DNA from: a virus
Taxonomy: Duplodnaviria > Caudoviricetes
Length of the DNA: 64,000 bases
IMG/VR virus record: IMGVR_UViG_3300048598_000287
Coordinates: 160,001 to 224,000 of that record
Reading direction: 5' to 3' (one strand)
How positions within the stretch are numbered: the first letter of the stretch is position 1; each line of letters opens with the position of its first letter. This document shows, piece after piece, positions 3,622 to 42,297 of the stretch. A program made the translations under genes and the position numbers. The notes below the pieces were generated by a model. The model did not search any database and had not been told where the DNA came from. It saw only the letters and a list, made by a program, of their open reading frames with translations.

Positions 3622-4056
3622 ATGACGTTCATCGATTTCATTCACGACAATGTATCAGACGAAAAATTCAAAAAGACCATCGATTCATTATACATCCTAT
3701 GGAAAGAATCTTACCCGGACTCTGACGTGCAAATGGAGGCGGATGACGGATCATCTACGGATACCAATGGTAATTCTGTAATTCCAGGAAATACTGCATC
3801 TACTTCAACTGAAGGTGCTAATACATCGGCAACTTCTTCTGATACAGACTGGAAAGGAGCGTTTAATCTTAATAATCTGGATGCGACTGCGGCAACTACA
3901 GTTGCCTCCCGGCTCAATGATATAGAAAAGGCAAAGGCTGATGCCGAAAAATATGCTGCATCAGCAAAGGACAATATTGACAAGCAATATGCAGAGGCGC
4001 AGAATCTGCTAAATGCATCCGCATCGTCAAAAAGCACTACGAATACCGTAGGGTGA
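3622..4056 (+). CDS. Hypothetical protein, possible internal head protein (divergent leader, low-complexity body)
   Basis: 144-aa ORF after late promoter; MTFIDFIH...VQME|ADD. Confidence 0.7.
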   Translation: MTFIDFIHDNVSDEKFKKTIDSLYILWKESYPDSDVQMEADDGSSTDTNGNSVIPGNTASTSTEGANTSATSSDTDWKGAFNLNNLDATAATTVASRLNDIEKAKADAEKYAASAKDNIDKQYAEAQNLLNASASSKSTTNTVG

Positions 4057-4063
4057 GGTAATC

Positions 4064-4570
4064 ATGATGACATTTAAAGAACAATTACGAAAGATGCAGA
4101 ATTCTGATCCTGAGCTATATGAATCGATTTCATGCGCATATGCAAAAATATTGACTGAATCATCCGGAAATCAAGCTTCTCATAATTCGTCATCAAATGA
4201 TGACGACACTATAATGCAAAGCTCGACAAAAGGCGTAGAAAGCATAATGGATAAAATTCATTCCATGGTGGGAGTGAATGAGAAAAAGAAAGAAGGGGAA
4301 AAAATTCTAGATACATCCAACGATGATGTCGATACAGTAAAGCCAGATGAGGAACAGACTGCGGATCTAATGGGCAAATCGCCCGACGAATCGGCTAACT
4401 TATCTGATAATGCGCAAACTGCTTTAGATAATCTATTCGCAGATTCTTCAGCATCAGGCGAAAACAGGGAAGAATCCCAGGATGACTATGATCCATTCGC
4501 AGAAGGAGAATCTGAACTGTTTGGAGATTCTGACCAGAGTGAATCACAGGATAAATCGGACGCCGTTTGA
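4064..4570 (+). CDS. Acidic hypothetical protein, possible internal head/core protein with leader
   Basis: 168 aa, GAGG RBS, leader MMTFKEQLRKM...KILTE|SS, very D/E-rich. Confidence 0.7.
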   Translation: MMTFKEQLRKMQNSDPELYESISCAYAKILTESSGNQASHNSSSNDDDTIMQSSTKGVESIMDKIHSMVGVNEKKKEGEKILDTSNDDVDTVKPDEEQTADLMGKSPDESANLSDNAQTALDNLFADSSASGENREESQDDYDPFAEGESELFGDSDQSESQDKSDAV

Positions 4571-4572
4571 AA

Positions 4573-5121
4573 TTAATCGGATTCCTCACAAAATGATGAG
4601 GCATCCTTTTCAGATGAAAAACAATCGGAGAATTTTGCCAGTCCGCTGGTAAGCGTATCGATCTCGCGGTTATATTTTACCCTCTTCCAATATTCCTTAT
4701 CAGTAGGGTGATCATTCATTATGATTGCCCTATTATCTGATAAATCGGCAATTTTTACCAATATCGCAGGTCGGCTTTCCATTATCTGGGCAAAATATTC
4801 TTCTCTGCAAGATGTCTTATTATGTGAAAGATGAACTACGGCTTCCCATACGTTCTCCGGGAAAAACATGCTTAGATCTCCCTGAGTGAATCCGCCATTA
4901 TCAAGTATATCATGAAGATAGCCTATTGTTATAATGGAATCATCCCGCTGATCCCCCTTCAAAATATCCACTACCCGCTGAATGTGGGAAAAAAGTGTAT
5001 TTCCCGCTTTGTCTTTCTGGCCAGTATGGGCAAATTCAGCAAAATCAGATGCGGTGCGCTTCATATCGCCGGTAGATTTATAAGTCCTAAGAAACTTATT
5101 TATATCTGTTCTTGTATACAT
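4573..5121 (-). CDS. HD-domain protein, Mesh1/SpoT-like (p)ppGpp hydrolase family
   Basis: AHTGQKDKAG, SHIQRV, YLHDILDN and VKIADLSDN motifs. Confidence 0.8.
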   Translation of the reverse strand: MYTRTDINKFLRTYKSTGDMKRTASDFAEFAHTGQKDKAGNTLFSHIQRVVDILKGDQRDDSIITIGYLHDILDNGGFTQGDLSMFFPENVWEAVVHLSHNKTSCREEYFAQIMESRPAILVKIADLSDNRAIIMNDHPTDKEYWKRVKYNREIDTLTSGLAKFSDCFSSEKDASSFCEESD

Positions 5122-5208
5122 CAGTTCTCCGTATTTAACTTACATTTACAAACCAACATGGAATATCCATCCTGCTTCATCATTAAAATATATTTTTTTA
5201 CGCGAATT

Positions 5209-6987
5209 CTAAATCCTAGTTAAAAATACTTTATCAAACGGATCAGAAAACATTGGATATCCGGCAGTTTCCATCCCGCTGAATGCATTTCCAGGTTCAT
5301 CCGAATTGGAAATGTTCCCGGGATTGGTGGGATCGACGAATCCAACAGGCCCAATGAATACATGATCAGGTAATTGATAATAATCGAATATCTTCCATGT
5401 TCCTGAAGATGCCGAATATATGAACGTCGCCCGGTACATCACCGGTCTGTTAGCTATCCCTATGTTTTCATCATATACATAGAAATTAGTCAGTCTAGCC
5501 ATGGAAAATTTAGCTATTGGATTGGTTAGGCATGATCCAGAATATGCTTCGCTGGCATTTTTAACTGAATATACATAAATCTGCGCCTTGTTTATTATGA
5601 GATCATTGGTAACTTTCCCGTTAAGTGATGGGTTAGGCCATATACGGAAGAAAAATTCGAACGTATATCCGTCTTCTGGAAGGCTTATACCGGAGGACGT
5701 ATCCGATTCCACCGGAAGATATATGCACAGTCCCTGGTCAAGATCAGGGCCATCATAATTTATATAATTTATGGTAGATACGTTTTCAGCAGCATGGTCG
5801 AATAACATTCCGGCAGAATATGACTGCCGTTCAGTCCCGGGAATGGAATCATCGAACGCCGATGTCTTTCCAGATGTCCATACTGGAGATGATGCCACAG
5901 GATACATGGCATAATTAGACGTGCTTATGACTCCTACCTTTCGGTTATATATAGATTCAGGTTTTTTATATGATACATTTCCATCAATTGATATATTGAC
6001 ATTAAGACTGGCATAAGAATCGCCGGAATTTTTAAGCATGATTCCCTTTATATCTACATCAGGAGAAATCCTGACTATCGTAGATGAGGTGAATTTTTCG
6101 CTGATAGGAACGGCAACTATTTCCTTCCATCTATCGGAAGCATCAGATTGCTCAGTATAATTTCCGGATCCGTCATACGATCCTATATAATCAGATGGAT
6201 CGCTTCTGTTTATTCCATCATCGATTAGATTGACAAACATATGGTAATTTCCGTAGTCCGACAATGCCCTGACGACGAGGCTTCCTTTATTATATACACT
6301 GGTAGAATCCCATACTGATCCTACCTTAACTAATGAAGACGTCCCGAACATTCCCGTGTTAAGTGAAGTGACATCTTCCGTTGCGACATATATGTTTCCC
6401 GCATAAATCACAAAATGATTTTTAAGAACGGATGTCATCGATACGGCATAATCAGTTATAAGATCGGATACATATCCTAGAGTTACCAGTTCATCCCATG
6501 TTTTAGGAGAAACTGAATCCTGCTGGGTGACTATTTTTAATTCATTTGCCGAATTTCTGACTATGCTTGACTTAATATAATCAGTGGATGACGCATTGGC
6601 GACAAATATATACACATCTTCGAATGCCATCCACGAGGTTCCGCCTGAATTAGATACATTAATCCTAAGAACTAGGGTGTCCTTTTTTGCAGAATCAGAA
6701 CTGGTCGTTACCATGATCGGATATTCATTTGTATAGGCATATGAATCGGCGGCTACTGGAGAAACACTTGTTGTACCAGCTGTTATAAGCTGTGACTTTT
6801 TAGTGGGAAACGTCCATGTGTTATAATAAGGCGGACTGTCTTTTGTCAGACGAACTGTTACCGTATCTTCCGTTGAATTGTTCCATTCAACTATCGCATT
6901 GAATATCGCCTCGAAATTATAATTGTTCCTGGAAATATCTCTGCTGATAGATTCAAGAGGAAACGCATTTACATAACTAGCATTCAT
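5209..6987 (-). CDS. Putative tail/baseplate structural protein
   Basis: ~592 aa S/T/Y-rich, directly downstream of the tail-fibre-like gene; CBM5/12-like WDSTSVYNKGSLV; AGGAAGG RBS before ATG 6987. Confidence 0.6.
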   Translation of the reverse strand: MNASYVNAFPLESISRDISRNNYNFEAIFNAIVEWNNSTEDTVTVRLTKDSPPYYNTWTFPTKKSQLITAGTTSVSPVAADSYAYTNEYPIMVTTSSDSAKKDTLVLRINVSNSGGTSWMAFEDVYIFVANASSTDYIKSSIVRNSANELKIVTQQDSVSPKTWDELVTLGYVSDLITDYAVSMTSVLKNHFVIYAGNIYVATEDVTSLNTGMFGTSSLVKVGSVWDSTSVYNKGSLVVRALSDYGNYHMFVNLIDDGINRSDPSDYIGSYDGSGNYTEQSDASDRWKEIVAVPISEKFTSSTIVRISPDVDIKGIMLKNSGDSYASLNVNISIDGNVSYKKPESIYNRKVGVISTSNYAMYPVASSPVWTSGKTSAFDDSIPGTERQSYSAGMLFDHAAENVSTINYINYDGPDLDQGLCIYLPVESDTSSGISLPEDGYTFEFFFRIWPNPSLNGKVTNDLIINKAQIYVYSVKNASEAYSGSCLTNPIAKFSMARLTNFYVYDENIGIANRPVMYRATFIYSASSGTWKIFDYYQLPDHVFIGPVGFVDPTNPGNISNSDEPGNAFSGMETAGYPMFSDPFDKVFLTRI

Positions 6988-7001
6988 TTTAAACCTTCCT
7001 A

Positions 7002-10000
7002 TCAAAGAGTTATTATAGTCCCAGACGTGGGACCGGTAGGACTATAATAATAAACATTTTTAGATACACCATTTGCTTGCGTGAAGTTCCACGTTAGGGA
7101 GCCATTTCCGCCGGCTCCTGTTCCTACCAGATATACATACATATCCATTCCAGTAGATGGCTGCATCCATAACTGATATTTAGATGGAGAACTTCCGCCA
7201 GATTCTTGTGTTCTGATGAGCTTTGCGTTAATACTAGGAGTATATGTAGACAGAACATTGGACCGGGTTGAACCAGTCTCTCTTCCATTTCCGCTTCCGG
7301 TGGTTATAGTCTCTGTAACATAGGTACCATACGGATGCGCCTTTGTCGGATTTCCTACCCAGTGTGAAACGGTATAATAGTTCGTTGATTCCGATGTAAC
7401 TAATTGAGATTTTAATGCATCTGTAAGATTACTTAAATCGGTTTGATCAGGCGCATTAGCCGTTGTTACCTGCGTCCGTGTGAAGGATGAGCATACCGTA
7501 TTTTCCACAGATAAATTATCTACCGTAGCGCCTAATGTTTTTGCTACTTCAATGCTAAGCATAAGACTATACCGCGCCCCGCCTCTAGGGCCTATACCCA
7601 TGACATCCGCGACAAAATATAATTCGCCGTTTACGAGCACATACTTTCCATTATCATTCACTACAGTTATACCAGGGACTTGTATGTCTGCCACTCTATA
7701 CCAGTTAGTGTCATTTTCTCCGTTGGTTCCTCCCCATTTCAGCTTATACACTACATCATCCAATAGGGCAAGCTTATCCACCTGCATTATTTCAGCCCGG
7801 GTTTCCGTTCCAGCTGAATTTACCTGATGCTGCTTATATCGTAGCATGAATGGGTGCACACCTTCTACATAACTTGGTCCGGGAAGAACAAGTTTAACGG
7901 ATTCATCCGAACAGCTACTATCATAATCTTTAATGTCATTATTTCCGCCCACCGAAGAAAGAACATGGGCAGATGTGCTTCCCGTAAGAAATTCGTCAAA
8001 TCCCCAGCAGGAATCCTCTCTGTTAGGAAGAATGTAATCGGTTCCCATCGTTCTGACTTTTCCGGCAGATGCAATAAGGAATCCGCCGTACATTGTTCTG
8101 GCGATATCTCCGTCAAACCAATAGCTCTGGCTTTTTGCATCTCCGGTAAGAGAAAGAGTGCCTAAAGTTTCAGTATTCTTTTCTATATCAAGATATTTTC
8201 CTTCCATATAGATAAGGCTTCTGGAATTCAGGGCTACTTTATTAGAAGAATACAGGGATAATGTATTAGCTGAACTAATCGCTATATATTCACTATCAGA
8301 ATACAAATTAGAATATACCGGATTATCTTGCCATACCCCATAACTATTGGCAGTAGAATATCGGCTGGTGCAGATGTAGCCGTTTGCATTTACAAATCCA
8401 TTAGTTATATTGATATTACTTTTAAGATCCCGTATTCCGTTTTGCGCGATTATTTCAATTATGGTATTTCTCGGCTGTCCATTGGAATTTACATCTTTAT
8501 GGTCTTCAAACCAATCTTTATCATAGAAATTGATGGATCCTATGCAGTTATCTGTTTTCGTCCGTGTAGTGTATCTTCCCATTGACATCTTTGTGTCAGA
8601 CACGCCGATATGATTTGTATGATATACTTGATAATTTGTAGTGTCCGGATTTATGTCAGTTGCATTGTTTATTGCAAATTCATACGTGCCTTGCGTCACT
8701 TCCATGTACATGTCGGCATGCGATGCAATATCGCTTGTGTTTACCCATCTATGCGGCCCGTCCGGATTGCCATTCAATATTATTCCGGATTCTATATAGC
8801 CATTAACCTTTTCTACGACATAGTTTCTGGCTACCATGAACCCGTTGCTACGGTATACGCCATTGGTTATGTATTCACCGTCTATATATTGCGTGGCAAG
8901 AGTGTTTCCATCCGGAACATATCCGGTGCCAACGATGAAGTTAGGATCTTCCATCGGGAAATTAGCAATGCCCGCTACCGTCTGATTAGCGCCTATGGCG
9001 CAGGTGAGGTAATTAAACGATGTTGAATTTATTCCGAACGGGTTGTCTAGATCAGATGCCGGGGCATATCGGGCAATCCGCCCACCGTTTACTCCATATT
9101 GGGAATAGTTTACATTTGCATCAAGAAATATATCCTGGTAAGTAGGGTATTTTTTTACCGATGTGACGATGGCGATCTGTTTTAAAAATTCTATTTTATC
9201 CCAGTATAGATAATTTCTGCCGTTAATCGACTGATCATATATTATTACCTTATCTCCTGCAGAAATTTTCTGAATTGTATATGGGGTAGACTTATTTTTA
9301 GTATAATACAGTCTGACGACATTTTTAGGCGAATATGTCGCGGACACCTGGTTTGCATCTGAGCATGTGTTAACTATGCTTTCACATCCTTCTGTAAGTT
9401 TAGTCAAATCAGGGACATCGAATACCATTCCGTAATATCCTACGGAATTCATCCGGTTGGCAGAAAATCCATGGTCACCCAATATGACAATATCCTCTCC
9501 TCCGGAAATAGCGCCATTAGAATTATATACCTGATTCCTGTTACCTGCATATATTCCGGAATATCTTCCCTGTACCATGGAGCTAGCGGATATGGCATGC
9601 GCATTGTCGCAGTTAAGGACATAGGTGCTGTCTCCTCCAGCCGTGCAGAATCTTCCTACTATCTTTGTGTTGTATCCATATGCCAGACTGTATGAATTAA
9701 GAGATCCGCCAACATTTTCAGAAACCCGGGTATCATATCGATCGCTTCCATCATTCCCACCCAAAGCTATATTAGGAGAATTAAGTGTAAAATATTCATC
9801 TATGTCAAACCGCCATGTCTTTCCCCCAGCAGAATGTTCGGTATCGTCCCCTTGAGATCCCATGATGGCCTGCATATAATATCCCATGGGTAGCAGATAT
9901 GTCTCATATTGACTATATTCTGCGGTGGACATGTTTTCGTCAAAAACCGGAGTCCGCAAATTTATGGGGATTGGGCATGAATTAAGAAGCTCCATCTTAT

Positions 10001-10409: not shown

Positions 10410-10435
10410 ATTACGACCACCTAATTTACTGCCAA

Positions 10436-12080: not shown

Positions 12081-12091
12081 TACGACGCGGC

Positions 12092-13057
12092 CTATTTATT
12101 GTATGTATATCTTGATGAATCAAAATTAGTTTCTACTCCCAATGCGGCAAGCGCATCAAGAGCATGCAGAATCTTTCCTGGATAATCAAGAGACTCTACC
12201 ATGCTTGGATTGATCGATATGGCATCCTGACGGCTCATTTCTCCGTCGGCGACCGCTCTGTAAAGCATAGGAACACTCCATGATTTACCAAGTTTTGACG
12301 TTAATCCTATGCCTCCATTATAACATGCGAACGCATATCGTATATCCCCTTCGCTATGATTATCGCGTCCATCACTTAGCACGGCATTTGACCTATCAGT
12401 CGTATACATTATTCTCAAAAGATATGCCGCTGCAGCGGAAGCCGCCTGTTCTACATTTTCAGGATCGTTCATTTCAGCAGGGTTAAGTCCGAATTGCGTT
12501 GCATATTTCCGGGCGTCTATAAGCGCACTGTCGCCCATCTGAGCGATCCCCTTATATCCTCTAGGGTTATATGGAGCAGGATTGAAATTGCTTTCAACAA
12601 GCATAAGCGCGACAAGTTCAGCCTTTCCCACCTTATATTTATTTGTTACCTTTGCAACTCTATCTACCGCATCATATACACGTTTCACATATGCCGCATT
12701 AGAATCGGAATCATTTTGGCATTTATATTTTCCACAAAGATTATCCATTATGAATTTTCTTATCGCCGTCTCATCCTCGCTAGCCGGTCGTGTTATTTCC
12801 TGAGTCTGTTCCGCCGGACTAGTCTCATTATACAATGCAGCTGTAGGGAACAGGGTAGACATCCCGATGAGTCCTGCGGCGGCAAGCTGTTTTGCCCTTG
12901 GATGTGACTTAAGAAAACTGTCCTTATCATATAGTGAACGTATCCTATCGGAAATGCCATTTTCATATATTGCACTATATAGATTGCACACTGCCTCATA
13001 CTGCGCTTCTGATAGATTAAGCTTCCTTATGCTTTCAAACAATAATTCTTCGTTCAT
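12092..13057 (-). CDS. Lytic transglycosylase (SLT domain) with N-terminal leader
   Basis: ALMLVESNFNP, GIAQM and ACYNGG SLT motifs. Confidence 0.85.
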   Translation of the reverse strand: MNEELLFESIRKLNLSEAQYEAVCNLYSAIYENGISDRIRSLYDKDSFLKSHPRAKQLAAAGLIGMSTLFPTAALYNETSPAEQTQEITRPASEDETAIRKFIMDNLCGKYKCQNDSDSNAAYVKRVYDAVDRVAKVTNKYKVGKAELVALMLVESNFNPAPYNPRGYKGIAQMGDSALIDARKYATQFGLNPAEMNDPENVEQAASAAAAYLLRIMYTTDRSNAVLSDGRDNHSEGDIRYAFACYNGGIGLTSKLGKSWSVPMLYRAVADGEMSRQDAISINPSMVESLDYPGKILHALDALAALGVETNFDSSRYTYNK

Positions 13058-13084
13058 TATCCCGCCATATATCGCGTCAATATC

Positions 13085-13162
13085 AGTTTATATAAGATTT
13101 GTGGAATTCATCTCTCCGGACTAAAGTCCGGGTATATTCTTTTGTAAATCTTATATAAACTA
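13085..13162. promoter_or_regulatory. Divergent late promoters flanking an IS200/605-end-like hairpin (ccggactaaagtccgg)
   Basis: agtttatataagattt...aaatcttatataaact inverted repeat; 13104-13162 is homologous to 40352-40410. Confidence 0.7.
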
Positions 13163-13185
13163 GATAGTGAAACAAGAGAATATAT

Positions 13186-14745
13186 ATGAAACCCTTCTAT
13201 TATGTAAGGACAATAGAAAAAATCCTTATCGGATTAATAGACATGTTCAACAACATGTACGTCAATAAATATGACGATATGTCTAGAACTACATATTCAA
13301 GAAGTGTAAAGATACCTATAATAACGCATAATAACGCTAATTTTACGAATTTCTGGTCCATTACACAATACAAGCAGCTTACCGTACCATATCCAATAGG
13401 GGCAATCCGGTTTGTGTCGAACAGCATGGATTCAACTAACCGCCCTCAACCAGCATATGCGAGAGAGATATTCTCGACTTCCAAAGACAAATGGATACGG
13501 GACATACAGCCTACCCCATATGTGTTTAACTTCGAATTACAGTTTCTGGCAGACAATATATCAGATCTTTTCCAGATAAAAGAGAGCATAGAGCCATATT
13601 TCAATGAATACAGGACAATAGTAATAAAGGAATGGGACTTCGCCCCAGAAATTTCTAGACCGGTTGTCATCCATCTGTTAGGAAACACCACTGAATTAAC
13701 AGAGGAAATAACGGATGCCGATGCCGCGCAGCAGATATATAAAGTGTCATACAATCTAGTAGCATATGGGGTATACCATCGTCCTTATGAGCATCCCGAA
13801 ATGATAAAATATGCTGAAATGAACTTCAACATAAATGAGGATTTAATCCATCGTGAACAGATTCTTGTATATCCGAATGAAATAATAGAGCAGAAAAAAA
13901 AGCTATGGGAAACGGTATGCCCCACTATCAGGGACGGATATTCCATCCTGCATACGCTTTCAACTACGCTAATGGCAAAACAAAATTCCGAAGGTAATGA
14001 TTATTACGAAGATATTTCTTTGAAACAGCTTCTGCTATATGATAAATATATTAGTTCGACATATCATGAGGATCAGAAACAATGCGGGGATGCCTCTTAT
14101 GATGCTTCCGGACTGCCGGTATATACATATTGCGAATCAGTTGTGGATGACATAACCAAGCCTTCAGAGGTGCCATCATTCAATCTCCTTAAATTAAATT
14201 TTGACTATGATTCCGGAACTGAAGCTGACCTTAGCGGGTTCGGAAGGGATTTTGTAGCAGTCAATGATGATACCCGGGAATTCGTTCCTAGCATGGCTCC
14301 GGGAAATGGGCAGAAAATAACCGGTGGATACGCCGTAGGAGACGCCGTTGATTGGAGTAAGATTCTGAATTGGTTCGGAGATAACGCGTCAGGGGACGTG
14401 GAATCATCATATACATTCAAGGCGACACTACAGTTCGTGGAAGAATCGCCAGGGGATACTATTTTTCAGTATCTAAGTAATGATGAAGTCGCCCTTTCAG
14501 ACGGGACGACAATACCGGAAGGAGAAGTATTCTTCGACTGGGGAATGATGAATGGAAGACTGTATTTCACCTATCATACATCATCAAAATTCAAAACGTT
14601 TATCTCTGATGCGATTGATCCGAATAATCAGACGATATATTCTTTCTATTTCGCATTGTATAATAATGGAGACAATGGAATATTCGGGGTAAAGACTAAT
14701 CTGAGCGATACAATGATAGTGCTCAATACCATAGAAACTACTTAA
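13186..14745 (+). CDS. Tail sheath stabiliser/terminator (T4 gp15-like) with C-terminal extension
   Basis: FYYVRTIEKILIGLIDMFNNMYV, VKIPI, PTPYVFNFEL and QIKESIEPYF match the gp15 pattern. Confidence 0.75.
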   Translation: MKPFYYVRTIEKILIGLIDMFNNMYVNKYDDMSRTTYSRSVKIPIITHNNANFTNFWSITQYKQLTVPYPIGAIRFVSNSMDSTNRPQPAYAREIFSTSKDKWIRDIQPTPYVFNFELQFLADNISDLFQIKESIEPYFNEYRTIVIKEWDFAPEISRPVVIHLLGNTTELTEEITDADAAQQIYKVSYNLVAYGVYHRPYEHPEMIKYAEMNFNINEDLIHREQILVYPNEIIEQKKKLWETVCPTIRDGYSILHTLSTTLMAKQNSEGNDYYEDISLKQLLLYDKYISSTYHEDQKQCGDASYDASGLPVYTYCESVVDDITKPSEVPSFNLLKLNFDYDSGTEADLSGFGRDFVAVNDDTREFVPSMAPGNGQKITGGYAVGDAVDWSKILNWFGDNASGDVESSYTFKATLQFVEESPGDTIFQYLSNDEVALSDGTTIPEGEVFFDWGMMNGRLYFTYHTSSKFKTFISDAIDPNNQTIYSFYFALYNNGDNGIFGVKTNLSDTMIVLNTIETT

Positions 14746-14761
14746 TGTTGGAGGATGATAG

Positions 14762-15133
14762 ATGCGTTTGCCATTCAATTCGTATATATGTAAGCTTGAC
14801 ATGCCCAATGAATTGCAACATGCCGTGATAGATCTGCGCAAACTATGCATGGAATCGGAAGATACAAAACAGTTATCGGAAGAAATTACTTCTGAAGAAA
14901 GCGCAATGATTAACGCAATAGGAAGAGACATTGTACGGAAAGTGACTGAATATATGAATGAACATGCGGAAAGCTTAGCCGATGTGGAGAAATACATGAA
15001 TACGCTATTCAATGAAAGATCTGGCGAGCTGAAGAAAAACTCAGCAAAAGGCGATAAATATGTCGATATGCTCAAGAATTCATTATGCAGTTTTCTTAAA
15101 ACGGCAGGCATAAATCCTGATCTTATAAACTAG
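14762..15133 (+). CDS. Leader-family protein (putative internal head protein)
   Basis: FNSYICKLDMPNELQHAVIDLRKLCME|SE; GGAGG RBS. Confidence 0.7.
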   Translation: MRLPFNSYICKLDMPNELQHAVIDLRKLCMESEDTKQLSEEITSEESAMINAIGRDIVRKVTEYMNEHAESLADVEKYMNTLFNERSGELKKNSAKGDKYVDMLKNSLCSFLKTAGINPDLIN

Positions 15134-15155
15134 ATATATCATAACATCAGGTGAA

Positions 15156-15605
15156 ATGATGAAGGAACTATTCGAATCTTATATAGGTAAGCTTACCATA
15201 CCGGAAACGCTAAAACAGTCAATCATAGACATACATAAAATATGTCTTGAAGCAGAGGAACTTACTCCGGAAGACGAGCAAAAAATGACTGACGTGCCCG
15301 CACCCGGGGACAATTCAGAGGATCCTGCAAAACCGATACGTGATGTGGGAAATCAAATAGTAAATGATGTCAATACCGCTTTTGTAAACCATAAAGGAAA
15401 CGAAGATTTTGATTATAAAACCGCAATCATTGATTCAGTAAAAAGTAAAAAACCCAAAATAGACGAATGTTTAAAACTAAACAAAAACGCATTGACGGCA
15501 ATAGCGACAATAATAGACCGGCAGACTAAGCAGATGGCTGGAGGAAACCGAGTTACATTGGATGAACTTACAAATGCGCTTGGATATCAGCAAAGTAAAG
15601 AATAA
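15156..15605 (+). CDS. Leader-family protein (putative internal head protein)
   Basis: FESYIGKLTIPETLKQSIIDIHKICLE|AE; late promoter 15124-15132. Confidence 0.7.
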   Translation: MMKELFESYIGKLTIPETLKQSIIDIHKICLEAEELTPEDEQKMTDVPAPGDNSEDPAKPIRDVGNQIVNDVNTAFVNHKGNEDFDYKTAIIDSVKSKKPKIDECLKLNKNALTAIATIIDRQTKQMAGGNRVTLDELTNALGYQQSKE

Positions 15606-15690
15606 TTTACATAATTTAATGAATCGCCACTGAGTTAGTTATATTCAGTGGAATACCTTCACAAATCTTATATAAACTAGTATCAGATAT

Positions 15691-17802
15691 ATGTCTTACG
15701 GGTACATAATGGGCTCCATATTTGAACATTCAATCAATAACCTTGGTATTCCTGAATATTTAAAAACCGCAGTTAAAACCATACGCAAAATATGTATGGA
15801 AGCCGAAGAAGCATCCGGAAATAGTAAAGAATTGGCAAAACAAGAAGAAACACTGCTAAATAATATAAAAAACGTAGTCGTGAATGGAAGCGATCTAAAT
15901 CAATATAATAAAGCAAAAAAAGAATTAATTGACTTTTATACTAAGACAGGAAATCATACAGCAATTAATGCGTATAATACCAATGTAGAAGCAAAGAAAA
16001 CTAATAAAGATATAGAAACCGCATTAAATTCAATGATTTATTCTGCTAGATCAGCGCAGTCAGAAAATATGCAGACCGCACCTGCTACGGCATATTCAAA
16101 TAATAAGACCGGAATAATCGTTTCGACAATAAACGGAAATAAAATAACTGTATATCCGAACGGAACCTCGTATATAAATGGCAATGAAACCGATAAGGCA
16201 ACGGCAACAAAAGCATTGGTGAATGCAGTTAAAATGGCTAATATAAATAAGGCAAAGGCAAAGATGCCCGCATTGGATGAAAACGGAACTCTTCCGGCAG
16301 GTGACCAGTTCATCTATATAAAGGGAGAAAAAATATTCACATCCATTCCATCAGATAAGCAGAAATGGAATAATGTAAAATCTGCGTCAGACGCATATAT
16401 GGCAGAAATGGATAACATCATAACGCCGGCTAAATATGCATTGACTTATCTAGGAGAGGCCAATGCTATTCCTGCAGAAGTTGCACAGACTTCCGCAGGA
16501 GAACCATCAGCGCAGTCAAAGGAGAATAATAAGGTAACTAATCAGAAACCCGATGTAGTAAACCCCGCATCCGGAAAATCAACGAATGCAGCCCAGCCTA
16601 AAAAGGAAATGCGTGAAAATAAATATTCTCCGGTGCAAGTAAAGATGGTGCAGATGCTTCTTAATAATGACAAGTATCATAATTTCCTAGATACTGATGG
16701 AATTATAGGAGAAAACACCTCTGGTGCAGTAGAATTTGCTAAAAATCTAGATGCCGACGGTAAATTCGGTCCTAAAACCGATGCCGCATTCAAGGAACTG
16801 CTCAAAGAAGCTACCGATTTGGTTAAAAATAAGCAGTCCGATCTTAACAAAAATAATAAAGCCGGGATAAAAGAAGATGGGCTGCTTGGTCAAGATACCA
16901 TAAATGCGCTTAAAAAAGCTGGAATAAATGATCCGCAGACCATATTCGGAATAAATCCTGACGCTACGGAAAAAGATGAAACTAAGGAAGAAGATAAATC
17001 TGTGAATGTAGGTAATCCATCGGCGAAAGACTGGCGGCATTCTGAAGAAGCTAAAGCCCATAAAGTTGAAACTGATTTTCTGAATAGTGTTCCTAACACT
17101 ATATCTGCTATGTCCGCCGACAACTCAGTAAAGGAAGACCTTAAAAAGAAATACTCAGCCGCGTTAATTACATTGAGAAACAATATAAGTGCAACTGTAA
17201 AAGAGGAGTCAACACCAGAAATTGCTGCCGGACAGATTCTATATTATCTAAATAGTGGAGTAAAAGGCGGACTATCGTATGAACAGATGTATGACCAGCT
17301 CAAAGAAGATCATATATTAGGTAAATACGTAAGCTCAGGAACAAAGGATCTGAAGAAGAGTCTTCTCCAGCTGACCGATATATGTGAAAAAATAAATCCC
17401 AAAAATGAGCCAGTAGAAGATTCACGAAACCGAGCGGCTGAATCAGTGAACGGGCAGCATGCAAATAGTGCAGAGCCAACCAAAGCATCCGGAGAAAAGG
17501 CAAAAAATCTAGCAAATAGATCATGGGGAGATTTCTTCGAACATCCAGAAAAATATCCAAAAGACTATGCAGGGAAAATAAAGACTGCCACCGAAATGTT
17601 TGCCAAAGATGCCGATTCTAACACAAATGGAACGGATTATACGAAAAGCGCATTAGAATATGCCACAAATAACATGTCATTCAGACGCCCTGACGGAACT
17701 ATTTCATATATGGGAATATCCAATGATGAGCAAACTGCTAGAAGTCAGTTCATTGATGACATGAATGCCATTGTTAAATCTTCTGCCAACGGGGTTAAAT
17801 AA
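15691..17802 (+). CDS. Leader-family protein with peptidoglycan-binding (PG_binding_1-like) repeats
   Basis: Leader ...TIRKICME|AE; LDTDGIIGENT, LDADGKFGPKT, IKEDGLLGQDT; late promoter 15671-15679. Confidence 0.75.
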   Translation: MSYGYIMGSIFEHSINNLGIPEYLKTAVKTIRKICMEAEEASGNSKELAKQEETLLNNIKNVVVNGSDLNQYNKAKKELIDFYTKTGNHTAINAYNTNVEAKKTNKDIETALNSMIYSARSAQSENMQTAPATAYSNNKTGIIVSTINGNKITVYPNGTSYINGNETDKATATKALVNAVKMANINKAKAKMPALDENGTLPAGDQFIYIKGEKIFTSIPSDKQKWNNVKSASDAYMAEMDNIITPAKYALTYLGEANAIPAEVAQTSAGEPSAQSKENNKVTNQKPDVVNPASGKSTNAAQPKKEMRENKYSPVQVKMVQMLLNNDKYHNFLDTDGIIGENTSGAVEFAKNLDADGKFGPKTDAAFKELLKEATDLVKNKQSDLNKNNKAGIKEDGLLGQDTINALKKAGINDPQTIFGINPDATEKDETKEEDKSVNVGNPSAKDWRHSEEAKAHKVETDFLNSVPNTISAMSADNSVKEDLKKKYSAALITLRNNISATVKEESTPEIAAGQILYYLNSGVKGGLSYEQMYDQLKEDHILGKYVSSGTKDLKKSLLQLTDICEKINPKNEPVEDSRNRAAESVNGQHANSAEPTKASGEKAKNLANRSWGDFFEHPEKYPKDYAGKIKTATEMFAKDADSNTNGTDYTKSALEYATNNMSFRRPDGTISYMGISNDEQTARSQFIDDMNAIVKSSANGVK

Positions 17803-18477
17803 ATGGCATCGATGTTCGATACATATGTGTCTAAACTAGATATGCCGAAGTATTTTCTGGAATCAGTGATATGCCTTAGAAAAATATGCATGGAGGCTGA
17901 TGATGTAGTTCAGTCAGACACGGGTGGAAAAGTAGTGCAAAATAAATCAGCATCAACTACTAATGATATCCCAAGAAAGGCTTCCGGAAAACCGGAACAG
18001 CCAGTTAAATCAGGAAATGAACCATCCACCGCTACAGTAAATTCTGACATAAAGACTTCAGGCAATGTAGAAACTACACCGGAAAATCAAAAGGAAACCC
18101 AGGCAGCAGATAAAGATTCTACGGCTGGAAAGGAACCATCAGATAAAAATGCCGAAGATAAAGATAAAAAGTCAGGCGATAATATAATAACAGCAGATAA
18201 ACTAGATGGAGACAAATTGCTAACGATGTTCAATCAATTTGCCGGCGCACGGCAGGCTGACGTTAACAAAGCACTTATGCAGGCATGCGGAGATCAGAAT
18301 GCAAAAACTATAATAGAGCATGCAAAAAGCTATCAAAAGTCGCATGAACCGATCGATGTTAATCAACAATTCAGTCCATGGATGAAAACTGGAGATGGAA
18401 AACAGCTTGATAAACAAGAAGCCATCCATCTTATTACCAATATACTTAAATATTATGGATTAAAATCAACTAAATGA
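17803..18477 (+). CDS. Leader-family protein (putative internal head protein)
   Basis: FDTYVSKLDMPKYFLESVICLRKICME|AD. Confidence 0.7.
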   Translation: MASMFDTYVSKLDMPKYFLESVICLRKICMEADDVVQSDTGGKVVQNKSASTTNDIPRKASGKPEQPVKSGNEPSTATVNSDIKTSGNVETTPENQKETQAADKDSTAGKEPSDKNAEDKDKKSGDNIITADKLDGDKLLTMFNQFAGARQADVNKALMQACGDQNAKTIIEHAKSYQKSHEPIDVNQQFSPWMKTGDGKQLDKQEAIHLITNILKYYGLKSTK

Positions 18478-18944: not shown

Positions 18945-18951
18945 GGAATGT

Positions 18952-19428
18952 ATGTACGTTAAAATAGTCACCCCGGCTGAAATAAAATCAATATTATCAA
19001 ATGAGGTTCAGATTCATAGATTTCCTATGATTTGTTATGAAAGGATAGATCTCCGGATTTCCGGAAAGACACCTGCACAGATAATGGATGACGCCAAAGC
19101 AATGGCTTATGATGCTAATTGGATGGTATTCATCCATGGCGAAAAAATAATCGGACTTGCATGCGTGAAGATATATTATGAAAAGAAAATAGCCAAAGGG
19201 ATGGAATTTGAAGTGGCTGTAGATGCGAAAGGAAATGGATTTTCAAATCAGATGTTGCAATACATTTTCAAGTTTGCCCTGAAAAATGCATGCATATACC
19301 TTGTTCTAACTGCATTTGATAATTCCGCATATAGCTACTGGAAACATCAGGGATTTTCCGATAGCGATACATCGGATGATAGATGCAAAAACCTGTTCAT
19401 ACGCATTCCAGGATCTATCATGGCATAA
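18952..19428 (+). CDS. GNAT-family acetyltransferase
   Basis: FEVAVDAKGNGFSNQML (motif A) and SAYSYWKHQGF (motif B). Confidence 0.75.
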   Translation: MYVKIVTPAEIKSILSNEVQIHRFPMICYERIDLRISGKTPAQIMDDAKAMAYDANWMVFIHGEKIIGLACVKIYYEKKIAKGMEFEVAVDAKGNGFSNQMLQYIFKFALKNACIYLVLTAFDNSAYSYWKHQGFSDSDTSDDRCKNLFIRIPGSIMA

Positions 19429-36706: not shown

Positions 36707-36922
36707 ATGAACGAACATTTGCAGACATATAATGGAATTCCTGTTTTTGACGTTCCGATAGGGGATTTTCTGATGGTGATTGATGCCGAAGCCAATGGAA
36801 AACGGCTTTTGTCAAAAAACTTATCAGATGAATCATTGCGCGCGTTTTATATAGCGGAAAGAAAGCCTGCATTTTATGTGATCTTTGGCGGAGTAAGGGT
36901 AAGATACCCTAAAAAGGAGTGA
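36707..36922 (+). CDS. Small late protein upstream of the portal
   Basis: 71 aa after late promoter 36665-36673. Confidence 0.6.
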   Translation: MNEHLQTYNGIPVFDVPIGDFLMVIDAEANGKRLLSKNLSDESLRAFYIAERKPAFYVIFGGVRVRYPKKE

Positions 36923-36924
36923 CC

Positions 36925-38625
36925 ATGCTTTTTAAATCTAAGAAAAAACCAGAAAACATAGCTTCCCTGGTAATGACTCATGTAAGGGATTATGGAGAAA
37001 ATAATCCCAAGGGAGAACTGTTTGACCGGGCATTTAACGGAGAAGACACCCACCGAAGCATTGTAAATTCCAGAAACTCCGTCGGACAGGGATCCAGTCA
37101 GATGATGTATCCCAACGGTCTTTCTCCCGATGGCTTCTCCACATACATGCCGTCGATGATGATAAATGACGGAACGGTAGATCCATCCAGAGTCCAGGAC
37201 GCCATAGCAGAAAACCAAGTACAGCTATACTGGCGTAATAATGTAGAACGAAAAATGAAGTACAATATCATCGCTACACGATCCGAGGTGAACGAAGCAC
37301 TTACTCAGATATGCAACGAAGCTGTATATACCGATGATCTTGGAGATATATGCTCCCTTGAAATAAATTCCTATGCAAACCTAGGCGAAACTACCAAAAG
37401 TGGGTTGCAGACCGTGTTCAAACGGGATGTATTGAGAAAGATATGCAAATTTCAGCGCACCGCATGGAATTACATGAAAAAAATGCTTACAGAAGGCCGA
37501 CTGTTCCTTGAAGTCATATATGATGAGCAGTCTCATGAGATAACAGGCCTTAATCTTCTGCCGGAAGAGAACATGATCGTAATTGTGCAGGATAACCTAA
37601 TAATAGGCTATAGGCAGATGATAACAGGAAATTATTCACATACCGGAAAGAACTATATAGATTTTTCGCCTAACCAGATTCTTTTCCTTTCTCTTGACTT
37701 ATATGGACCGGGTGGGGTAAATGATCCTAGATCCATACTTGAGCCGGCAGTCAAGGCTCATAATCAGCTTAGCACCATAGAGGATTCCGTGGTTATGTAC
37801 CGCGTGCTATGGGGATCTGAGAAAATGGTACTTAAAGTGGACGTCGGAGGGATGCCCAAGCCTCAGGCAGAAAAGCATATGAAGGATCAGTCCAAGATAT
37901 TCTCTCGGCAGATTGACTATAATACCACCACAGGAGAAATAACTAACTGGGGAAAGGCAATAGGGTTGTCGGAGCACTTTATTATTCCTGTAACTGGAAA
38001 CGGAAGCGGATCTAATATAGAAAGATTGGCTGGCGGAGATCAGCTTGGAAATATAGACGACCTTAAATTTTTCAAGAGAAATCTGGTGAATTCCATGATG
38101 GTTCCTCTTGGAAGGATAACTGCTCTTGCCGGAGATTCAGTAAATTATTCAAACGGAAAGATAGGAGAGGTCACCCAGGCGGAAGCATCGTTTGCACGTC
38201 TAATCCAAAGATATCAGGCTCCGATAGAACAGGCATTGGTAAGACTATTCATCATGGTGCTTAATACAAAGAAGGAATTTTCCGACACATTAAAACTAGA
38301 AGAAAACTTTGACATAAAATTCAAACGCAGCAATGGATTCCAGAGCTATATCGATGCCGATGTATGGACATCTCGCCTAACAGTATTCAGTTCAATGATG
38401 GAATTCTGCGTAAAGGATGATGCCCCGAATAACCCGCTTTCACAGGAATATGCCCTTCGATATGGATTGCGTATATCCGATGCCGATCTTACGCTGAATA
38501 AATCCTGGAAAGAGCATGAACAGAATGTCATGCTAGGAGAAAATTCAGGAAGCGGCAATGCCGGAGGATCTAACGAATTCGGCGGAGGAGATATGGCCCC
38601 TGCGCCTATGAGTGGAACAATTTAA
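36925..38625 (+). CDS. gp20: Portal protein (T4 gp20-like)
   Basis: EVNEAL..ICNEA, HNQLSTIEDSVVMYR, VDVGGMPK..AE, GNIDDLKFF. Confidence 0.92.
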   Translation: MLFKSKKKPENIASLVMTHVRDYGENNPKGELFDRAFNGEDTHRSIVNSRNSVGQGSSQMMYPNGLSPDGFSTYMPSMMINDGTVDPSRVQDAIAENQVQLYWRNNVERKMKYNIIATRSEVNEALTQICNEAVYTDDLGDICSLEINSYANLGETTKSGLQTVFKRDVLRKICKFQRTAWNYMKKMLTEGRLFLEVIYDEQSHEITGLNLLPEENMIVIVQDNLIIGYRQMITGNYSHTGKNYIDFSPNQILFLSLDLYGPGGVNDPRSILEPAVKAHNQLSTIEDSVVMYRVLWGSEKMVLKVDVGGMPKPQAEKHMKDQSKIFSRQIDYNTTTGEITNWGKAIGLSEHFIIPVTGNGSGSNIERLAGGDQLGNIDDLKFFKRNLVNSMMVPLGRITALAGDSVNYSNGKIGEVTQAEASFARLIQRYQAPIEQALVRLFIMVLNTKKEFSDTLKLEENFDIKFKRSNGFQSYIDADVWTSRLTVFSSMMEFCVKDDAPNNPLSQEYALRYGLRISDADLTLNKSWKEHEQNVMLGENSGSGNAGGSNEFGGGDMAPAPMSGTI

Positions 38626-38663
38626 CATACTGAAAATTTTCTGAACATCGTTGATTTAATTAG

Positions 38664-38690
38664 AAAAATCCCGCAAAAATGGGATTTTTT
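38664..38690 (+). terminator. Putative terminator after the portal
   Basis: aaaaatccc-gcaaaaat-gggattttt. Confidence 0.5.
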
Positions 38691-38790
38691 AATTTCAATG
38701 CAGATTTTTGCCATATTTTTTTGCTGCGTAAATAGCTCAATAAACTTAAAGTAGAAACCAAGAACAGCGCCAGTGTGCGCAAGGTATATT

Positions 38791-40284
38791 ATGCAGCAAT
38801 TCAGACCAAAATGTGCAACGTCAAAGTGGAGACCCATTCTAGAGTCCAACCTTGGCAAGAAGATCACCTCCCGTGCCGATGCAGCAGTGATATCCACTCT
38901 GCTTGAAAACGAGTGCCGCCTCAATAAGGGATTCCTCCCAGAATCAGCGAACATTTCCGCTGATGTGGCGCAGTATCAGCAATATGCGCTTCCCCTCGTG
39001 CGCAGACAGTTTCCTGAACTGCTTGCCATGCAGACGGTGGCCACCATTCCGACAACGACTCCTAACGGAATTTACTTTGCCCTTCGTTTCCTCTATGATG
39101 ACGAAGCCCCGAAGACCGTCGGTTTCCGTAAGGGTCTCAAGAAGGAAATCGGATATGATCTCGTAGCTGATCATACCGGAGTAAAAGGAACGTTCAATCC
39201 CTGGACGACAACCTCTGGAGAAATGCTTTCCAACTATTCCGAAGGAACCTTCGGAGGCGGAACGTTCAATGGCATGTCCAAGAATTCCGCAAATGGTACT
39301 GGCGATGCATATCTAACCAATAACTTCGGCGATCAGTCCGGCGTTGGCGATTATTATGATGCTGAATCAGGCCATTATAATATCAAGAAAGCCTCGATCA
39401 AGGTTGTTTCCGGTTCGATAAGAGTCGGTACAAAGGGCATCAAGTCCCATTACACCCTTGAACTTCAGCAAGACATGGCAGCTGCTCATGGTCAGGACGT
39501 GGAAGCTCTTCTCCTTGAAGGCCTCCAGTTCGAAATCCAGCAGGAAATCGACCGTGAAATTCTTGCCGCTATGGTTTCTGTAGCCCAGAATCCAAAGTTC
39601 GGTGGTGAATCCGCGATTACGGTTGACCTCTCCGCAAAAGCCAATTTCAACGACGGTCGTTGGGCGGCTGAAAAGATTGCCGGCGGTATCGTCAATACCA
39701 TCATCGGCGTGGCCCGCAAGCTTTCTCTGACGACCCGCATGGGCTCAGGAAACTTCGCGATTTGCTCTCCGAGCATCGTCGCTGCAATTTCCACGCTTAA
39801 TAACGGTATCTACATCCCGACTTATCTCGGAACGGATGCAGCTGTACAGCCGGGTGGCGGAGTAAGCGATGCAGGATCTCTTCTTAATGGTCAGATCAAG
39901 CTCTATCAGGATATTTATTCCTGGCAGGACTATGCGCTGGTCGGATTCAAGGGACCACGTCAGGGAGAATCGGGCATCATATTCATGCCGTACATCCCAT
40001 ACATCTTCTGCAAGACCGCAGGTCAGGAAGATGCATCTCCTCGTCTCATCGTGAAGTCCAGATACGCGATCGTCGCTAACCTTCTCGGTTGCGGACTCTT
40101 CTACCGTGTCGTGCGCTTCATCAACAATGACCTCCTCGGTGTCTCCTTCACGGGCGACATTCCTTGGGAATCCAATGAAGGTCCTACGACCGAAGTGACC
40201 CTGGATACTGTCGGCACATCCGATAATGCCGGGCATACACTTGACCGTCCGTTCAATACGGCGGCTCAGGAAGAGGTCTGGTAA
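38791..40284 (+). CDS. gp23: Major capsid protein (T4 gp23-like)
   Basis: KWRPILE, LLENE, LPLVRR.FP, YTLELQQDM.A.HG.D.E, EIDREI, FMPYIP, KSRYA; highly expressed codon bias. Confidence 0.95.
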   Translation: MQQFRPKCATSKWRPILESNLGKKITSRADAAVISTLLENECRLNKGFLPESANISADVAQYQQYALPLVRRQFPELLAMQTVATIPTTTPNGIYFALRFLYDDEAPKTVGFRKGLKKEIGYDLVADHTGVKGTFNPWTTTSGEMLSNYSEGTFGGGTFNGMSKNSANGTGDAYLTNNFGDQSGVGDYYDAESGHYNIKKASIKVVSGSIRVGTKGIKSHYTLELQQDMAAAHGQDVEALLLEGLQFEIQQEIDREILAAMVSVAQNPKFGGESAITVDLSAKANFNDGRWAAEKIAGGIVNTIIGVARKLSLTTRMGSGNFAICSPSIVAAISTLNNGIYIPTYLGTDAAVQPGGGVSDAGSLLNGQIKLYQDIYSWQDYALVGFKGPRQGESGIIFMPYIPYIFCKTAGQEDASPRLIVKSRYAIVANLLGCGLFYRVVRFINNDLLGVSFTGDIPWESNEGPTTEVTLDTVGTSDNAGHTLDRPFNTAAQEEVW

Positions 40285-40306
40285 TCGCAAGGTTGCTGAA
40301 CTTATG

Positions 40307-40336
40307 AAAAGGGTCCCTCGAAAGAGGGCCCTTTTT
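40307..40336 (+). terminator. Rho-independent terminator of the MCP gene
   Basis: aaaagggtccctc-gaaa-gagggcccttttt. Confidence 0.85.
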
Positions 40337-40351
40337 GTATTTTAAATGGCT

Positions 40352-40410
40352 GAATTCATCTCTCCGGGATAAAGTCCGGAAGTTTTCTTCCGCAAATCTT
40401 ATATAAACTA
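40352..40410. repeat. 59-bp unit: IS200/605-end-like hairpin plus late promoter
   Basis: Homologous to 13104-13162 and 10436-10480. Confidence 0.65.
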
Positions 40411-40432
40411 TATGCGTATTATATTGCATATA

Positions 40433-41719
40433 ATGAAACGAGCACTTGAATTATACGAATCGGTTAAGAGAATGGGCATGAATGAATCCCAGTGCAGGGC
40501 CGTGCTCAAACTATCGGCAGCCATATTCGAAAATGCAAGCGAATTCGAAGATCTAGAATTCGCTGACACAGTAATCAATGCAGTACGTGATTCAGATATA
40601 TATTCTGACATATCCATTGCAATAAGCAGCAAATTTAATGGAAATATCTCAGAAATGCAGGAAGAGTTCGGCTTCCTGTCAAAACGGATTGTCATTTTCA
40701 TTGACGATGGAAAAATTACCGGGTTCCCTGATACGACGCAGAAATATTCATATTCCATCATGGAATATATGTCATCCATAAATAAGGGGAATGCGGTCAA
40801 ACCCGATTTCATGAATCATCAGCACGTCATCTGCATAAATTATAGCATGTATAAGCATGCCAATGCAACAGGAATGTTCTACCCAGGATATGGGAATCTA
40901 GCATATATCGATATATATCTGTTAAAACTAATGAAAAGCCCGTATTTTATTACTTTGCTAAATGAGGCATCTGGGAAATCTCCGTCAGGCAAAATGTACG
41001 ACGCCATGATGCAGCTATTCTCTGACTCCGAAGAAATACTTATACATGAAATAAGCCATTATATAACGGCATATAAAGAAGCCGGAAACACAAAAGGAAC
41101 CCGCCACGATTATAAAAAAATATTGGGAAATCTTGACGAAAAGGAATCGGAACGGTATAAAAAAGGAGACATAAGTCATTTTTATTCCAGTGATTCCGGT
41201 GATGACGAATATTATAAATTGTTATATAACACCGATGATGATGAAATAAACAGCTGTATAAAAGAATGCGCATATTGGTCGATAATTAAAGAAAAAGACA
41301 TAATTAGCAAATCATCGGAATTAAATTCAGACATGTCAGATGAATTCATGAAAAAAACATATGAAACAATATATAAGCGAATGTCAAATGAAATGATATC
41401 ACGGGTAAGCGAAACGCTGGATTTCAAGCGAAACAAATACCCGGTTAACCTTAGAAACAAGATAATGAAACGTATATATTATGTATCAGTGACATTTGCC
41501 GAATATGCAGTACGGTTTCCTGATCAGGCAAAAACGGAATCCCTGGCGGATACTTTGCATGGTATAAGCAAGATGGATTCGGCAGGATTTGATTTCGCCA
41601 TGAAAATAAATCCCGACTCGCCTTATGCAGAAGATATAAATAACGATGCCATGAATATAAGGAAAAAATCACATGGAATGAAAGGATTTTTTGCCAAGCT
41701 GTTTGGAAAAGAGGAATGA
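40433..41719 (+). CDS. Leader-family protein with HExxH putative metallopeptidase motif
   Basis: LYESVKRMGMNESQCRAVLKLSAAIFE|NA; LIHEISH...YNTDDDEINS. Confidence 0.65.
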   Translation: MKRALELYESVKRMGMNESQCRAVLKLSAAIFENASEFEDLEFADTVINAVRDSDIYSDISIAISSKFNGNISEMQEEFGFLSKRIVIFIDDGKITGFPDTTQKYSYSIMEYMSSINKGNAVKPDFMNHQHVICINYSMYKHANATGMFYPGYGNLAYIDIYLLKLMKSPYFITLLNEASGKSPSGKMYDAMMQLFSDSEEILIHEISHYITAYKEAGNTKGTRHDYKKILGNLDEKESERYKKGDISHFYSSDSGDDEYYKLLYNTDDDEINSCIKECAYWSIIKEKDIISKSSELNSDMSDEFMKKTYETIYKRMSNEMISRVSETLDFKRNKYPVNLRNKIMKRIYYVSVTFAEYAVRFPDQAKTESLADTLHGISKMDSAGFDFAMKINPDSPYAEDINNDAMNIRKKSHGMKGFFAKLFGKEE

Positions 41720-42297
41720 TGAAAAAGACATATGCAATATTTACAGAATCCGTCATTAAAATCGGATTACCCTATGTTCAGGAAACCGCGATCATTGCGC
41801 TTGGAAATACATTATTGGAATTTGTTGATCCAAGAAATGATGTTGATCATCCGTCATGTTCCTCCGGTCTTCTTATAACAGATGGAAAGGTATTCCTTGC
41901 GGAACTTCCATATGGAAATATGAAAGGGAAATCTAAACAATATGATCTACCTAAAGGTCATGTGGAAAACGATGGAGAAACCGTAAAGGATGCGGCATTC
42001 CGGGAAGCCCTGGAAGAAACAGGATATAACTGGCAGAAGTATTATGAAAATGCTCATGGAGTATTCCGTAAGCCAGTTCCTTTTCGCAAAGGAAATAATC
42101 TGATGCTATATCGCATTAATCTAGAAGAAATGCCGCCACTTGATTCATATGCATGCAAAAGTTACTTTCACGATGAAAAAAAGAACGCGGCAATGCCTGA
42201 AGCTTGCGCATATGAATATCTACCGCTTAAAGAAATAGGAAAATGGCTATGGCCAGAATTTGACAAGACATTCAAACGGGAAGGAATACGGTTTTAA
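41716..42297 (+). CDS. Nudix hydrolase with N-terminal leader
   Basis: PKGHVENDGETVKDAAFREALEETG Nudix box. Confidence 0.9.
   Translation: MMKKTYAIFTESVIKIGLPYVQETAIIALGNTLLEFVDPRNDVDHPSCSSGLLITDGKVFLAELPYGNMKGKSKQYDLPKGHVENDGETVKDAAFREALEETGYNWQKYYENAHGVFRKPVPFRKGNNLMLYRINLEEMPPLDSYACKSYFHDEKKNAAMPEACAYEYLPLKEIGKWLWPEFDKTFKREGIRF

Follow-up and report, generated by a model that had tools for sequence, protein, structure and literature searches.

A shared N-terminal leader on unrelated late proteins of an uncultivated T4-superfamily phage as a candidate capsid-targeting propeptide

Why would a bacteriophage open many unrelated late proteins with one and the same short sequence? The question is raised by a stretch of 64,000 nucleotides (the window), corresponding to bases 160001-224000 of the 277,197-bp IMG/VR virus record IMGVR_UViG_3300048598_000287. 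The original prediction on this stretch had named nine open reading frames (ORFs) with a common N-terminal leader and had read the leader as a tag that loads proteins into the phage head. Seven of these nine ORFs open with the same leader of ~33 residues (range 31-36), and by analogy with phage T4 we consider it probable that this leader represents an extended capsid-targeting propeptide of the T4 type, peculiar to the lineage.

A hidden Markov model (HMM) of the leader was built from the seven strong ORFs and run iteratively against the complete set of 1660 ORFs in the 277-kb record. It converged on 12 members with E-values of 1e-11 to 1e-15, and the reversed-sequence decoys all stayed at E above ~1. 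The N-terminal pattern described for 13057(-), 14762, 15156, 15691, 17803, 40433 and 41716 was thereby reproduced at the same E-values. A broader HMM, which also takes in sequences of relatives and for which we called members firm at E < 1e-5, found 13 firm and four borderline members in the record, the first reversed decoy appearing at E 7.7. The borderline members, at genome positions 109748, 108611, 140180 and 138565, each have an N-terminal match, and the match is N-terminal in 16 of the 17 members overall. No other protein of the phage's own genome was matched by the leader HMM, so that the genome scan proposed together with the original prediction returned no non-leader proteins, and the scan of relatives was positive. 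The two ORFs that had been named as weaker members did not hold up. The ORF at 3622..4056 (+), which has a late promoter at 3587-3595 and the sequence LWKE|S (the bar marks a possible cut), had no HMM match and no profile similarity to the leader in hhalign, and we treat it as an unsupported non-member. The very acidic 168-residue ORF at 4064..4570 (+), with ILTE|S at residues 29-33, was missed by both HMMs; hhalign placed it in register with the leader but weakly (E 0.018 in a single comparison, probability 2.6%), which is suggestive at most and leaves it a possible divergent member, not an established one.

The main leader cluster of the window (13057 to 18477) flanks the gene for a gp3-like tail sheath stabiliser (13186..14745, +; phrog_227, E 1e-14; late promoter at 13154-13162), which is the first gene of the late unit containing 14762-18477. 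On the other strand lies the gene for an SLT lytic transglycosylase of 321 aa (12092..13057, -; leader HMM E 1e-13, Pfam SLT E 3e-10), preceded by the promoter variant TATAAACTG at 13084-13092(-); its leader comprises residues 1-32 (12962-13057) and ends in AIYE|N. Downstream of the gp3-like gene and in the same late unit, an acidic ORFan of 123 aa (14762..15133, +; leader HMM E 2e-15), for which no match was found in Pfam or PHROG, carries the leader at residues 1-31 (14762-14854) with the ending LCME|S. An ORFan of 149 aa (15156..15605, +; leader HMM E 9e-15) with the promoter TATAAACTA at 15124-15132 carries it at residues 1-32 (15156-15251) and ends it in ICLE|A. The peptidoglycan-binding-domain protein of 703 aa (15691..17802, +; leader HMM E 1e-14; Pfam PG_binding_3/1) matches the leader from residue 7 (15709-15801, ending ICME|A), and its true start is probably M7 at 15709, since the promoter at 15671-15679 leaves 11 nt to the first ATG and 29 nt to M7. 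The same ending, ICME|A, closes the leader of a low-complexity protein of 224 aa (17803..18477, +; leader HMM E 7e-15; residues 1-31, 17803-17895), which had no family match in Pfam or PHROG.

The two remaining leader genes of the window overlap each other. The first encodes a 428-residue protein with an HExxH motif, HEISH (40433..41719, +; leader HMM E 5e-13; leader at residues 1-33, 40433-40531, ending AIFE|N); the ATG at 40412 was excluded as its start and 40433 kept because a promoter lies at 40402-40410. The second encodes a tagged Nudix hydrolase of 193 aa (41716..42297, +; leader HMM E 3e-13, Pfam NUDIX; leader at residues 1-35, 41716-41820, ending TLLE|F). The identities first proposed for the cargo were recovered by Pfam for the SLT (13057), PG_binding (15691) and Nudix (41716) proteins; for the protein at 40433..41719 the HExxH motif stands but a peptidase family does not, as it had no match in Pfam or the PDB and the Atlas yielded weak leads to LPD-type domains.

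The leader is not confined to this record. Among the IMG/VR relatives found through the capsid protein are two genomes of 422 and 419 kb, both complete and bearing terminal repeats, with 88% identity in this protein. Genome profile searches gave 19 and 18 leader matches in these two, and ~20 proteins were confirmed in each, all tagged at the N-terminus and ranging from 64 to 1346 aa. In clades with 61-68% capsid-protein identity, the leader HMM gave 0-1 weak matches and no recognisable copies. De novo clustering of one genome with 63% capsid-protein identity brought out three proteins that share another N-terminus of ~44 residues (…F-M-E-S-V-C-K … M-L-P … A-F-C-E|A), two of them encoded at 12344-13240 and 124420-124899 of that genome; its architecture is like that of the leader, and the HMMs of the two gave no cross-match. 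When 1.84 billion representative proteins were searched with the profile, 29 matches came out at E 0.001 or better, 26 of which lie at or near the start (first 23 residues). Ten are proteins of this phage itself (nine recognised by their sequence or identical length, the tenth being a fragment of 71 aa with two differing positions), 16 are other proteins of varied size and body with the leader within the first 23 residues, and two are repeat-protein false positives. The best leader match of the remaining one, P0014 (479 aa), is internal (residues 304-341), and its N-terminus is leader-like by eye, below the reporting threshold; two client genes may have fused here, or the protein may be a polyprotein that is cut internally. 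Judged from this search of 1.84 billion representative proteins, the leader does not extend beyond this phage lineage.

The leader behaves as a module. Past residue 40, no body matched another in BLASTP at E < 0.01, and the bodies include distinct folds (SLT, PG_binding and Nudix, plus Amidase_2 outside the window), most of the others being ORFans; that the sequences after the final Glu are unrelated, as first proposed, is borne out. A pair of Nudix paralogs further shows that the leader is an add-on. An untagged Nudix protein of 149 aa (43159..43608, +), 47% identical in BLASTP over residues 2-141 to residues 48-186 of the tagged form, begins exactly where the body of the tagged form starts, and both forms recur in related phages. 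By sequence comparison the leader is conserved at the protein level and not at the DNA level, as paralogous leaders share 30% amino-acid identity with a nucleotide identity of 44% on average and 62% at maximum, and conserved residues are encoded by differing synonymous codons. In 23 ortholog pairs drawn from three genomes, which are not independent of one another, the leader was 56% identical versus 37-39% for the next 35 residues and the remaining protein (p ~0.003). Many cargo bodies have no ortholog, or one with 26-64% identity, between genomes with capsid proteins 88% identical, and the cargo set turns over quickly.

All leader genes seem to be expressed late. The motif TATAAACTA occurs in 39 copies versus ~7 expected, mostly 23-27 nt ahead of a start codon, and precedes large structural genes. 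It lies directly upstream of ten leader genes, and the remaining ones lie downstream in the operons so headed; the placement of every leader gene in a late-promoter unit, which had been proposed, therefore extends to all 17 of 17 members. Between the transglycosylase gene and the gp3-like gene, a divergent pair of late-type promoters, CAAATCTTATATAAACT[A/G], flanks a GC-rich hairpin at 13084..13162 and drives 13057(-) and 13186(+). Genome-wide, the late-type box also takes an extended 18-nt form, CAAATCTTATATAAACTA (11 copies), and the form CCGGCATTATAAACTA. Box copies are found in the window at 13058-13185, 3564-3595 and 40360-40410, and several copies form back-to-back divergent pairs, some beside GC-rich hairpins, an arrangement that recalls the gene-shuffling promoter-stem-loop cassettes of T4-type phages (PMC2839356).

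What kind of head does the phage build? We assign it to the T4 superfamily as an uncultivated, distant myovirus of ~420 kb, because it carries T4-type head genes and has complete relatives of 422 and 419 kb; the 277,197-bp record itself is 66% complete according to CheckV. The window encodes a T4 gp20-like portal protein (36919..38625, +; phrog_213, E 1e-65) and a T4 gp23-like major capsid protein (38773..40284, +; phrog_138, E 2e-68; ~28-30% identity to gp23 of distant T4-type phages). A prohead protease of the gp21 family, Peptidase_S77, lies outside the window at genome 267640-268362 (PF03420, E 5e-15; 30% identity to T4 gp21). The gene after it is a putative scaffold gene, called by its position and its conservation in relatives; its product had no significant match to T4 gp22. 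Before the protease, at genome 267445-267624, there is a conserved ORF of 59 aa with a likeness by eye to T4 gp67 (…NND..V.AKLV..YMES…). One leader member, at genome 266617-267303, belongs to this head-morphogenesis operon, where the gp67-like ORF and the protease and scaffold genes follow it directly, and both complete relatives keep this placement. The protein that it encodes has a CxC…CxH motif of the SWIM zinc-finger type.

The same protease family would account for the end of the leader. T4 gp23 is annotated as cleaved by gp21, at a bond that we take to be Glu65|Ala66. BLASTP against T4 gp23 aligns the sequence FLPE|S of the capsid protein of this phage on FLTE|A, which agrees with the original proposal of a compatible FLPE|SA site, and we predict the maturation cut of the capsid protein after E57 (codon 38941-38943). 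Cleavage by gp21 falls after Glu (PMC9026906). A motif [C/L/I/V]-[F/L/M/Y]-E at residues 25-42 is present in 46 of 53 leaders from the three genomes, as against 8.5% of other ORFs, in line with the hydrophobic-x-Glu ending first noticed; A, S or G comes next after the motif Glu in 35 of the 46. The stretch after the motif is the least conserved part (37% identity between orthologs) and is often acidic. At P3, the third residue before the predicted cut, the 46 leaders have C (26), L (12), I (7) or V (1), and never A, S or G.

Structure prediction gave the leader a compact shape. An AlphaFold2 (AF2) model of the 15156 leader, computed from a 12-sequence alignment, consists of a helix at residues 2-11, a loop and a helix at residues 17-35, with a mean predicted local distance difference test score (pLDDT) of 90 and a drop in confidence at the predicted cut site. 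A Foldseek search of this model against the PDB yielded generic helical hairpins only, none of them significant (best E 0.9). Signal peptides, signal-arrest-release endolysins and membrane anchors were considered and rejected, as runs free of charged or polar residues do not exceed 8 and the maximum Kyte-Doolittle value of a 19-mer is 1.28.

Taken as an extended capsid-targeting propeptide, the ~33-residue helix-loop-helix would serve as a head address on the N-terminus of ~20 unrelated late proteins. It would dock its clients to the assembling prohead core or scaffold, and the gp21-type (S77) protease would then remove it after the conserved [C/L/I]-[F/L/M/Y]-E in which helix 2 ends. Mature clients would remain in the head, core components being degraded and expelled instead, and the clients so retained would be delivered with the DNA. 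We favour this reading because a T4-type head module with an S77 protease, an L-x-E site in the capsid protein and a portable N-terminal module ending in a like motif are all found in this phage, and because the leader proteins are expressed late, have one member in the protease operon and turn over rapidly. The original prediction of a modular, longer packaging tag that loads enzymes for injection thus retains its modularity and its T4-type head and protease context, while the packaging, docking, cleavage, head residence and injection of the tagged proteins are steps that we infer from these. The acidic low-complexity proteins and the protease-operon member may be prohead-core components and not injected cargo. 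A more ambitious version, which we hold to be doubtful, is that the leader, unlike the linear 10-mer of T4, is a self-folding helix-loop-helix address domain docking ~20 clients to a specific prohead receptor, an independent, orthogonal loading code by which cell-wall hydrolases, a Nudix protein and a putative metallopeptidase would be delivered from the head and not the tail.

Several observations weigh against capsid targeting. The terminal Glu motif belongs to the conservation of the leader family, hence it is not independent evidence of cleavage, and Cys at P3 in 26 of 46 leaders departs, as read from the sequences, from the L/I of T4 and from the L of the phage's own capsid protein. The leader HMM gave no significant score against the T4 capsid targeting sequences (CTS) of IPI, IPII and IPIII or against gp22, gp67 and gp68. 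T4 internal proteins are basic, whereas the bodies of the leader proteins here are acidic to neutral, with isoelectric points of 4.1-8.3. Cell-wall hydrolases in a myovirus head would be unusual, the T4 lysozyme being carried on the tail (gp5). The AF2 model of the full-length tagged Nudix protein reached a pLDDT of 65, with a leader of low confidence and disorder at residues 35-49. The idea that the leader was copied from the N-terminus of the phage's own scaffold was tried and rejected, since hhalign against six scaffold N-termini gave a probability of 0.1%. No cultured relative was found, the top capsid-protein identity in the phage collection being ~30%. Finally, the exception to the N-terminal position is a late ORF of 79 aa at genome 100332-100571, in which the leader forms the last 29 residues and the stop comes three residues past the conserved Glu (LYE|TCF); this ORF may represent a member without cargo, one tagged at the C-terminus or a decayed gene.

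Some of these points would fit a leader that is never cut. As a permanent docking or oligomerisation domain, it would either gather its clients in a common complex or bring them into the virion, be it the head interior, the portal or the tail lumen. The AF2 model of a self-folding helix-loop-helix, as opposed to a linear peptide, speaks for such a domain, as do the position of the main cluster next to the gp3-like tail gene at 13186, the usual tail association of myovirus cell-wall enzymes (T4 gp5) and the Cys at P3, which is atypical of gp21-type sites. The near-invariant Glu that falls precisely where helix 2 ends, with A/S/G next and a poorly conserved stretch thereafter, argues against it, and so do the L-x-E|S site of this phage's capsid protein, homologous to that of T4, and the member in the head-protease operon; we judge an uncut domain unlikely.

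A destination outside the virion would suit the three clients that act on peptidoglycan (SLT, PG_binding and Amidase_2) and the late expression of all clients; cell-wall enzymes might be exported at lysis, or the leader might direct proteins to a compartment within the cell or to a chaperone such as GroEL. Recruitment to GroEL has been reported for the N-terminus of T4 gp23, according to a work cited in PMC10052503 (its ref 29). However, the leaders lack a hydrophobic run of the membrane type (maximum Kyte-Doolittle 19-mer 1.28), a Nudix hydrolase and many acidic proteins of low complexity are among the clients, and one member sits within the head-morphogenesis operon, and we find such a destination highly improbable. 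Hardly credible is a by-product of recombination, in which a mobile cassette of promoter plus 5' coding sequence shuffles genes without any function as a protein tag: the 18-nt box CAAATCTTATATAAACTA does precede many members, sometimes with a hairpin, and promoter cassettes mediate gene shuffling in T4-type phages (PMC2839356), but leader DNA is 44% identical (maximum 62%) with differing synonymous codons, several members, located within operons, lack their own promoter, and the leaders of orthologs are more conserved than the cargo.

The late region of the window also holds genes without the leader, among them those for an HD-type phosphohydrolase (4573-5121, -; phrog_990) and a GNAT-like acetyltransferase (18952-19428, +). 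It is interrupted by a block at 43634-58732 with membrane-transporter-like, DNA methyltransferase-like and other accessory ORFs, including an IS256-type transposase-like ORF at 48132-49349.

If capsid targeting is correct, one could read from sequence which proteins giant phages that defy cultivation probably package in their heads, and the leader would flag likely first-strike proteins for host takeover or anti-defence. It would also provide a second capsid-loading tag for proteins, apparently unrelated in sequence to that of T4. The finding overturns no concept, since T-even internal proteins sharing a CTS are textbook knowledge; the principle is already known, and what is new is the 33-residue helix-loop-helix form, the number of clients (~20) and the presence of cell-wall enzymes among them. 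Our literature search found no paper describing this long leader. Portable addresses into a shell of the HK97 fold are known elsewhere, namely the peptides that load cargo into encapsulins and the C-terminal helix-turn-helix of the P22 scaffolding protein, whose coat-binding element is a helical hairpin of a size similar to the leader. These elements differ from the leader in sitting at the other terminus and in not being removed by a protease, and they have no sequence relation to it.

Among giant myoviruses, the substrates of the SPN3US protease gp245 (phiKZ-like) offer a parallel, in that a T4-related prohead protease cuts after Glu with Ser/Ala preferred at P1', the residue after the cut, and the propeptides have been proposed to target proteins to the prohead (PMC10052503, PMC7411985). 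Only about 20% of the SPN3US head proteins are cleaved, and their propeptides span 20-254 residues, contain no single shared module and end in an A-x-E site (PMC10052503). The A/S/G-x-E motif of the phiKZ/SPN3US type, as defined in PMC10052503, is present in none of the 46 motif-bearing leaders. Unlike SPN3US, the phage described here has one conserved module on many proteins, with C/L/I at P3.

The nearest counterpart in principle is the CTS of T4. As reviewed in PMC9026906, PMC3012670 and PMC7411985, Mullaney and Black reported in 1996 on the CTS of IPI, IPII, IPIII and Alt, which the prohead protease gp21 removes. Through the CTS, internal proteins attach to the prohead core, after which gp21 cleaves it off (PMC9026906, PMC7411985), and the diverse internal proteins of T-even phages share only this sequence (PMC3012670, PMC9026906). 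By eye only, and statistically unsupported, helix 1 of the leader looks like the T4 CTS MKTYQEFIAE (residues 1-11 of ipII/ipIII), and the whole leader like residues ~18-43 of T4 gp22 (…IFESV-NISPEA…VFE|A). As in T4, an N-terminal tag on unrelated late proteins ends in hydrophobic-x-Glu and goes along with a gp21-family S77 protease and a gp23-like capsid protein with a homologous cut site. The cargo set is likewise fast-evolving in both (PMC3012670, PMC9026906), and the main leader cluster flanks a gp3-like gene just as ipI lies near gene 3 on the T4 map. In contrast, the T4 CTS has 10-19 residues, whereas the leader has 31-36 and a predicted helix-loop-helix; P3 is mostly Cys here; and four clients in T4 stand against ~20 here, among them three peptidoglycan-active proteins, a Nudix hydrolase and proteins of up to 1346 aa. 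If capsid targeting holds, the T4 principle of an address tag plus a protease would have been stretched in this lineage to a longer, folded tag on ~20 fast-changing clients, enzymes included.

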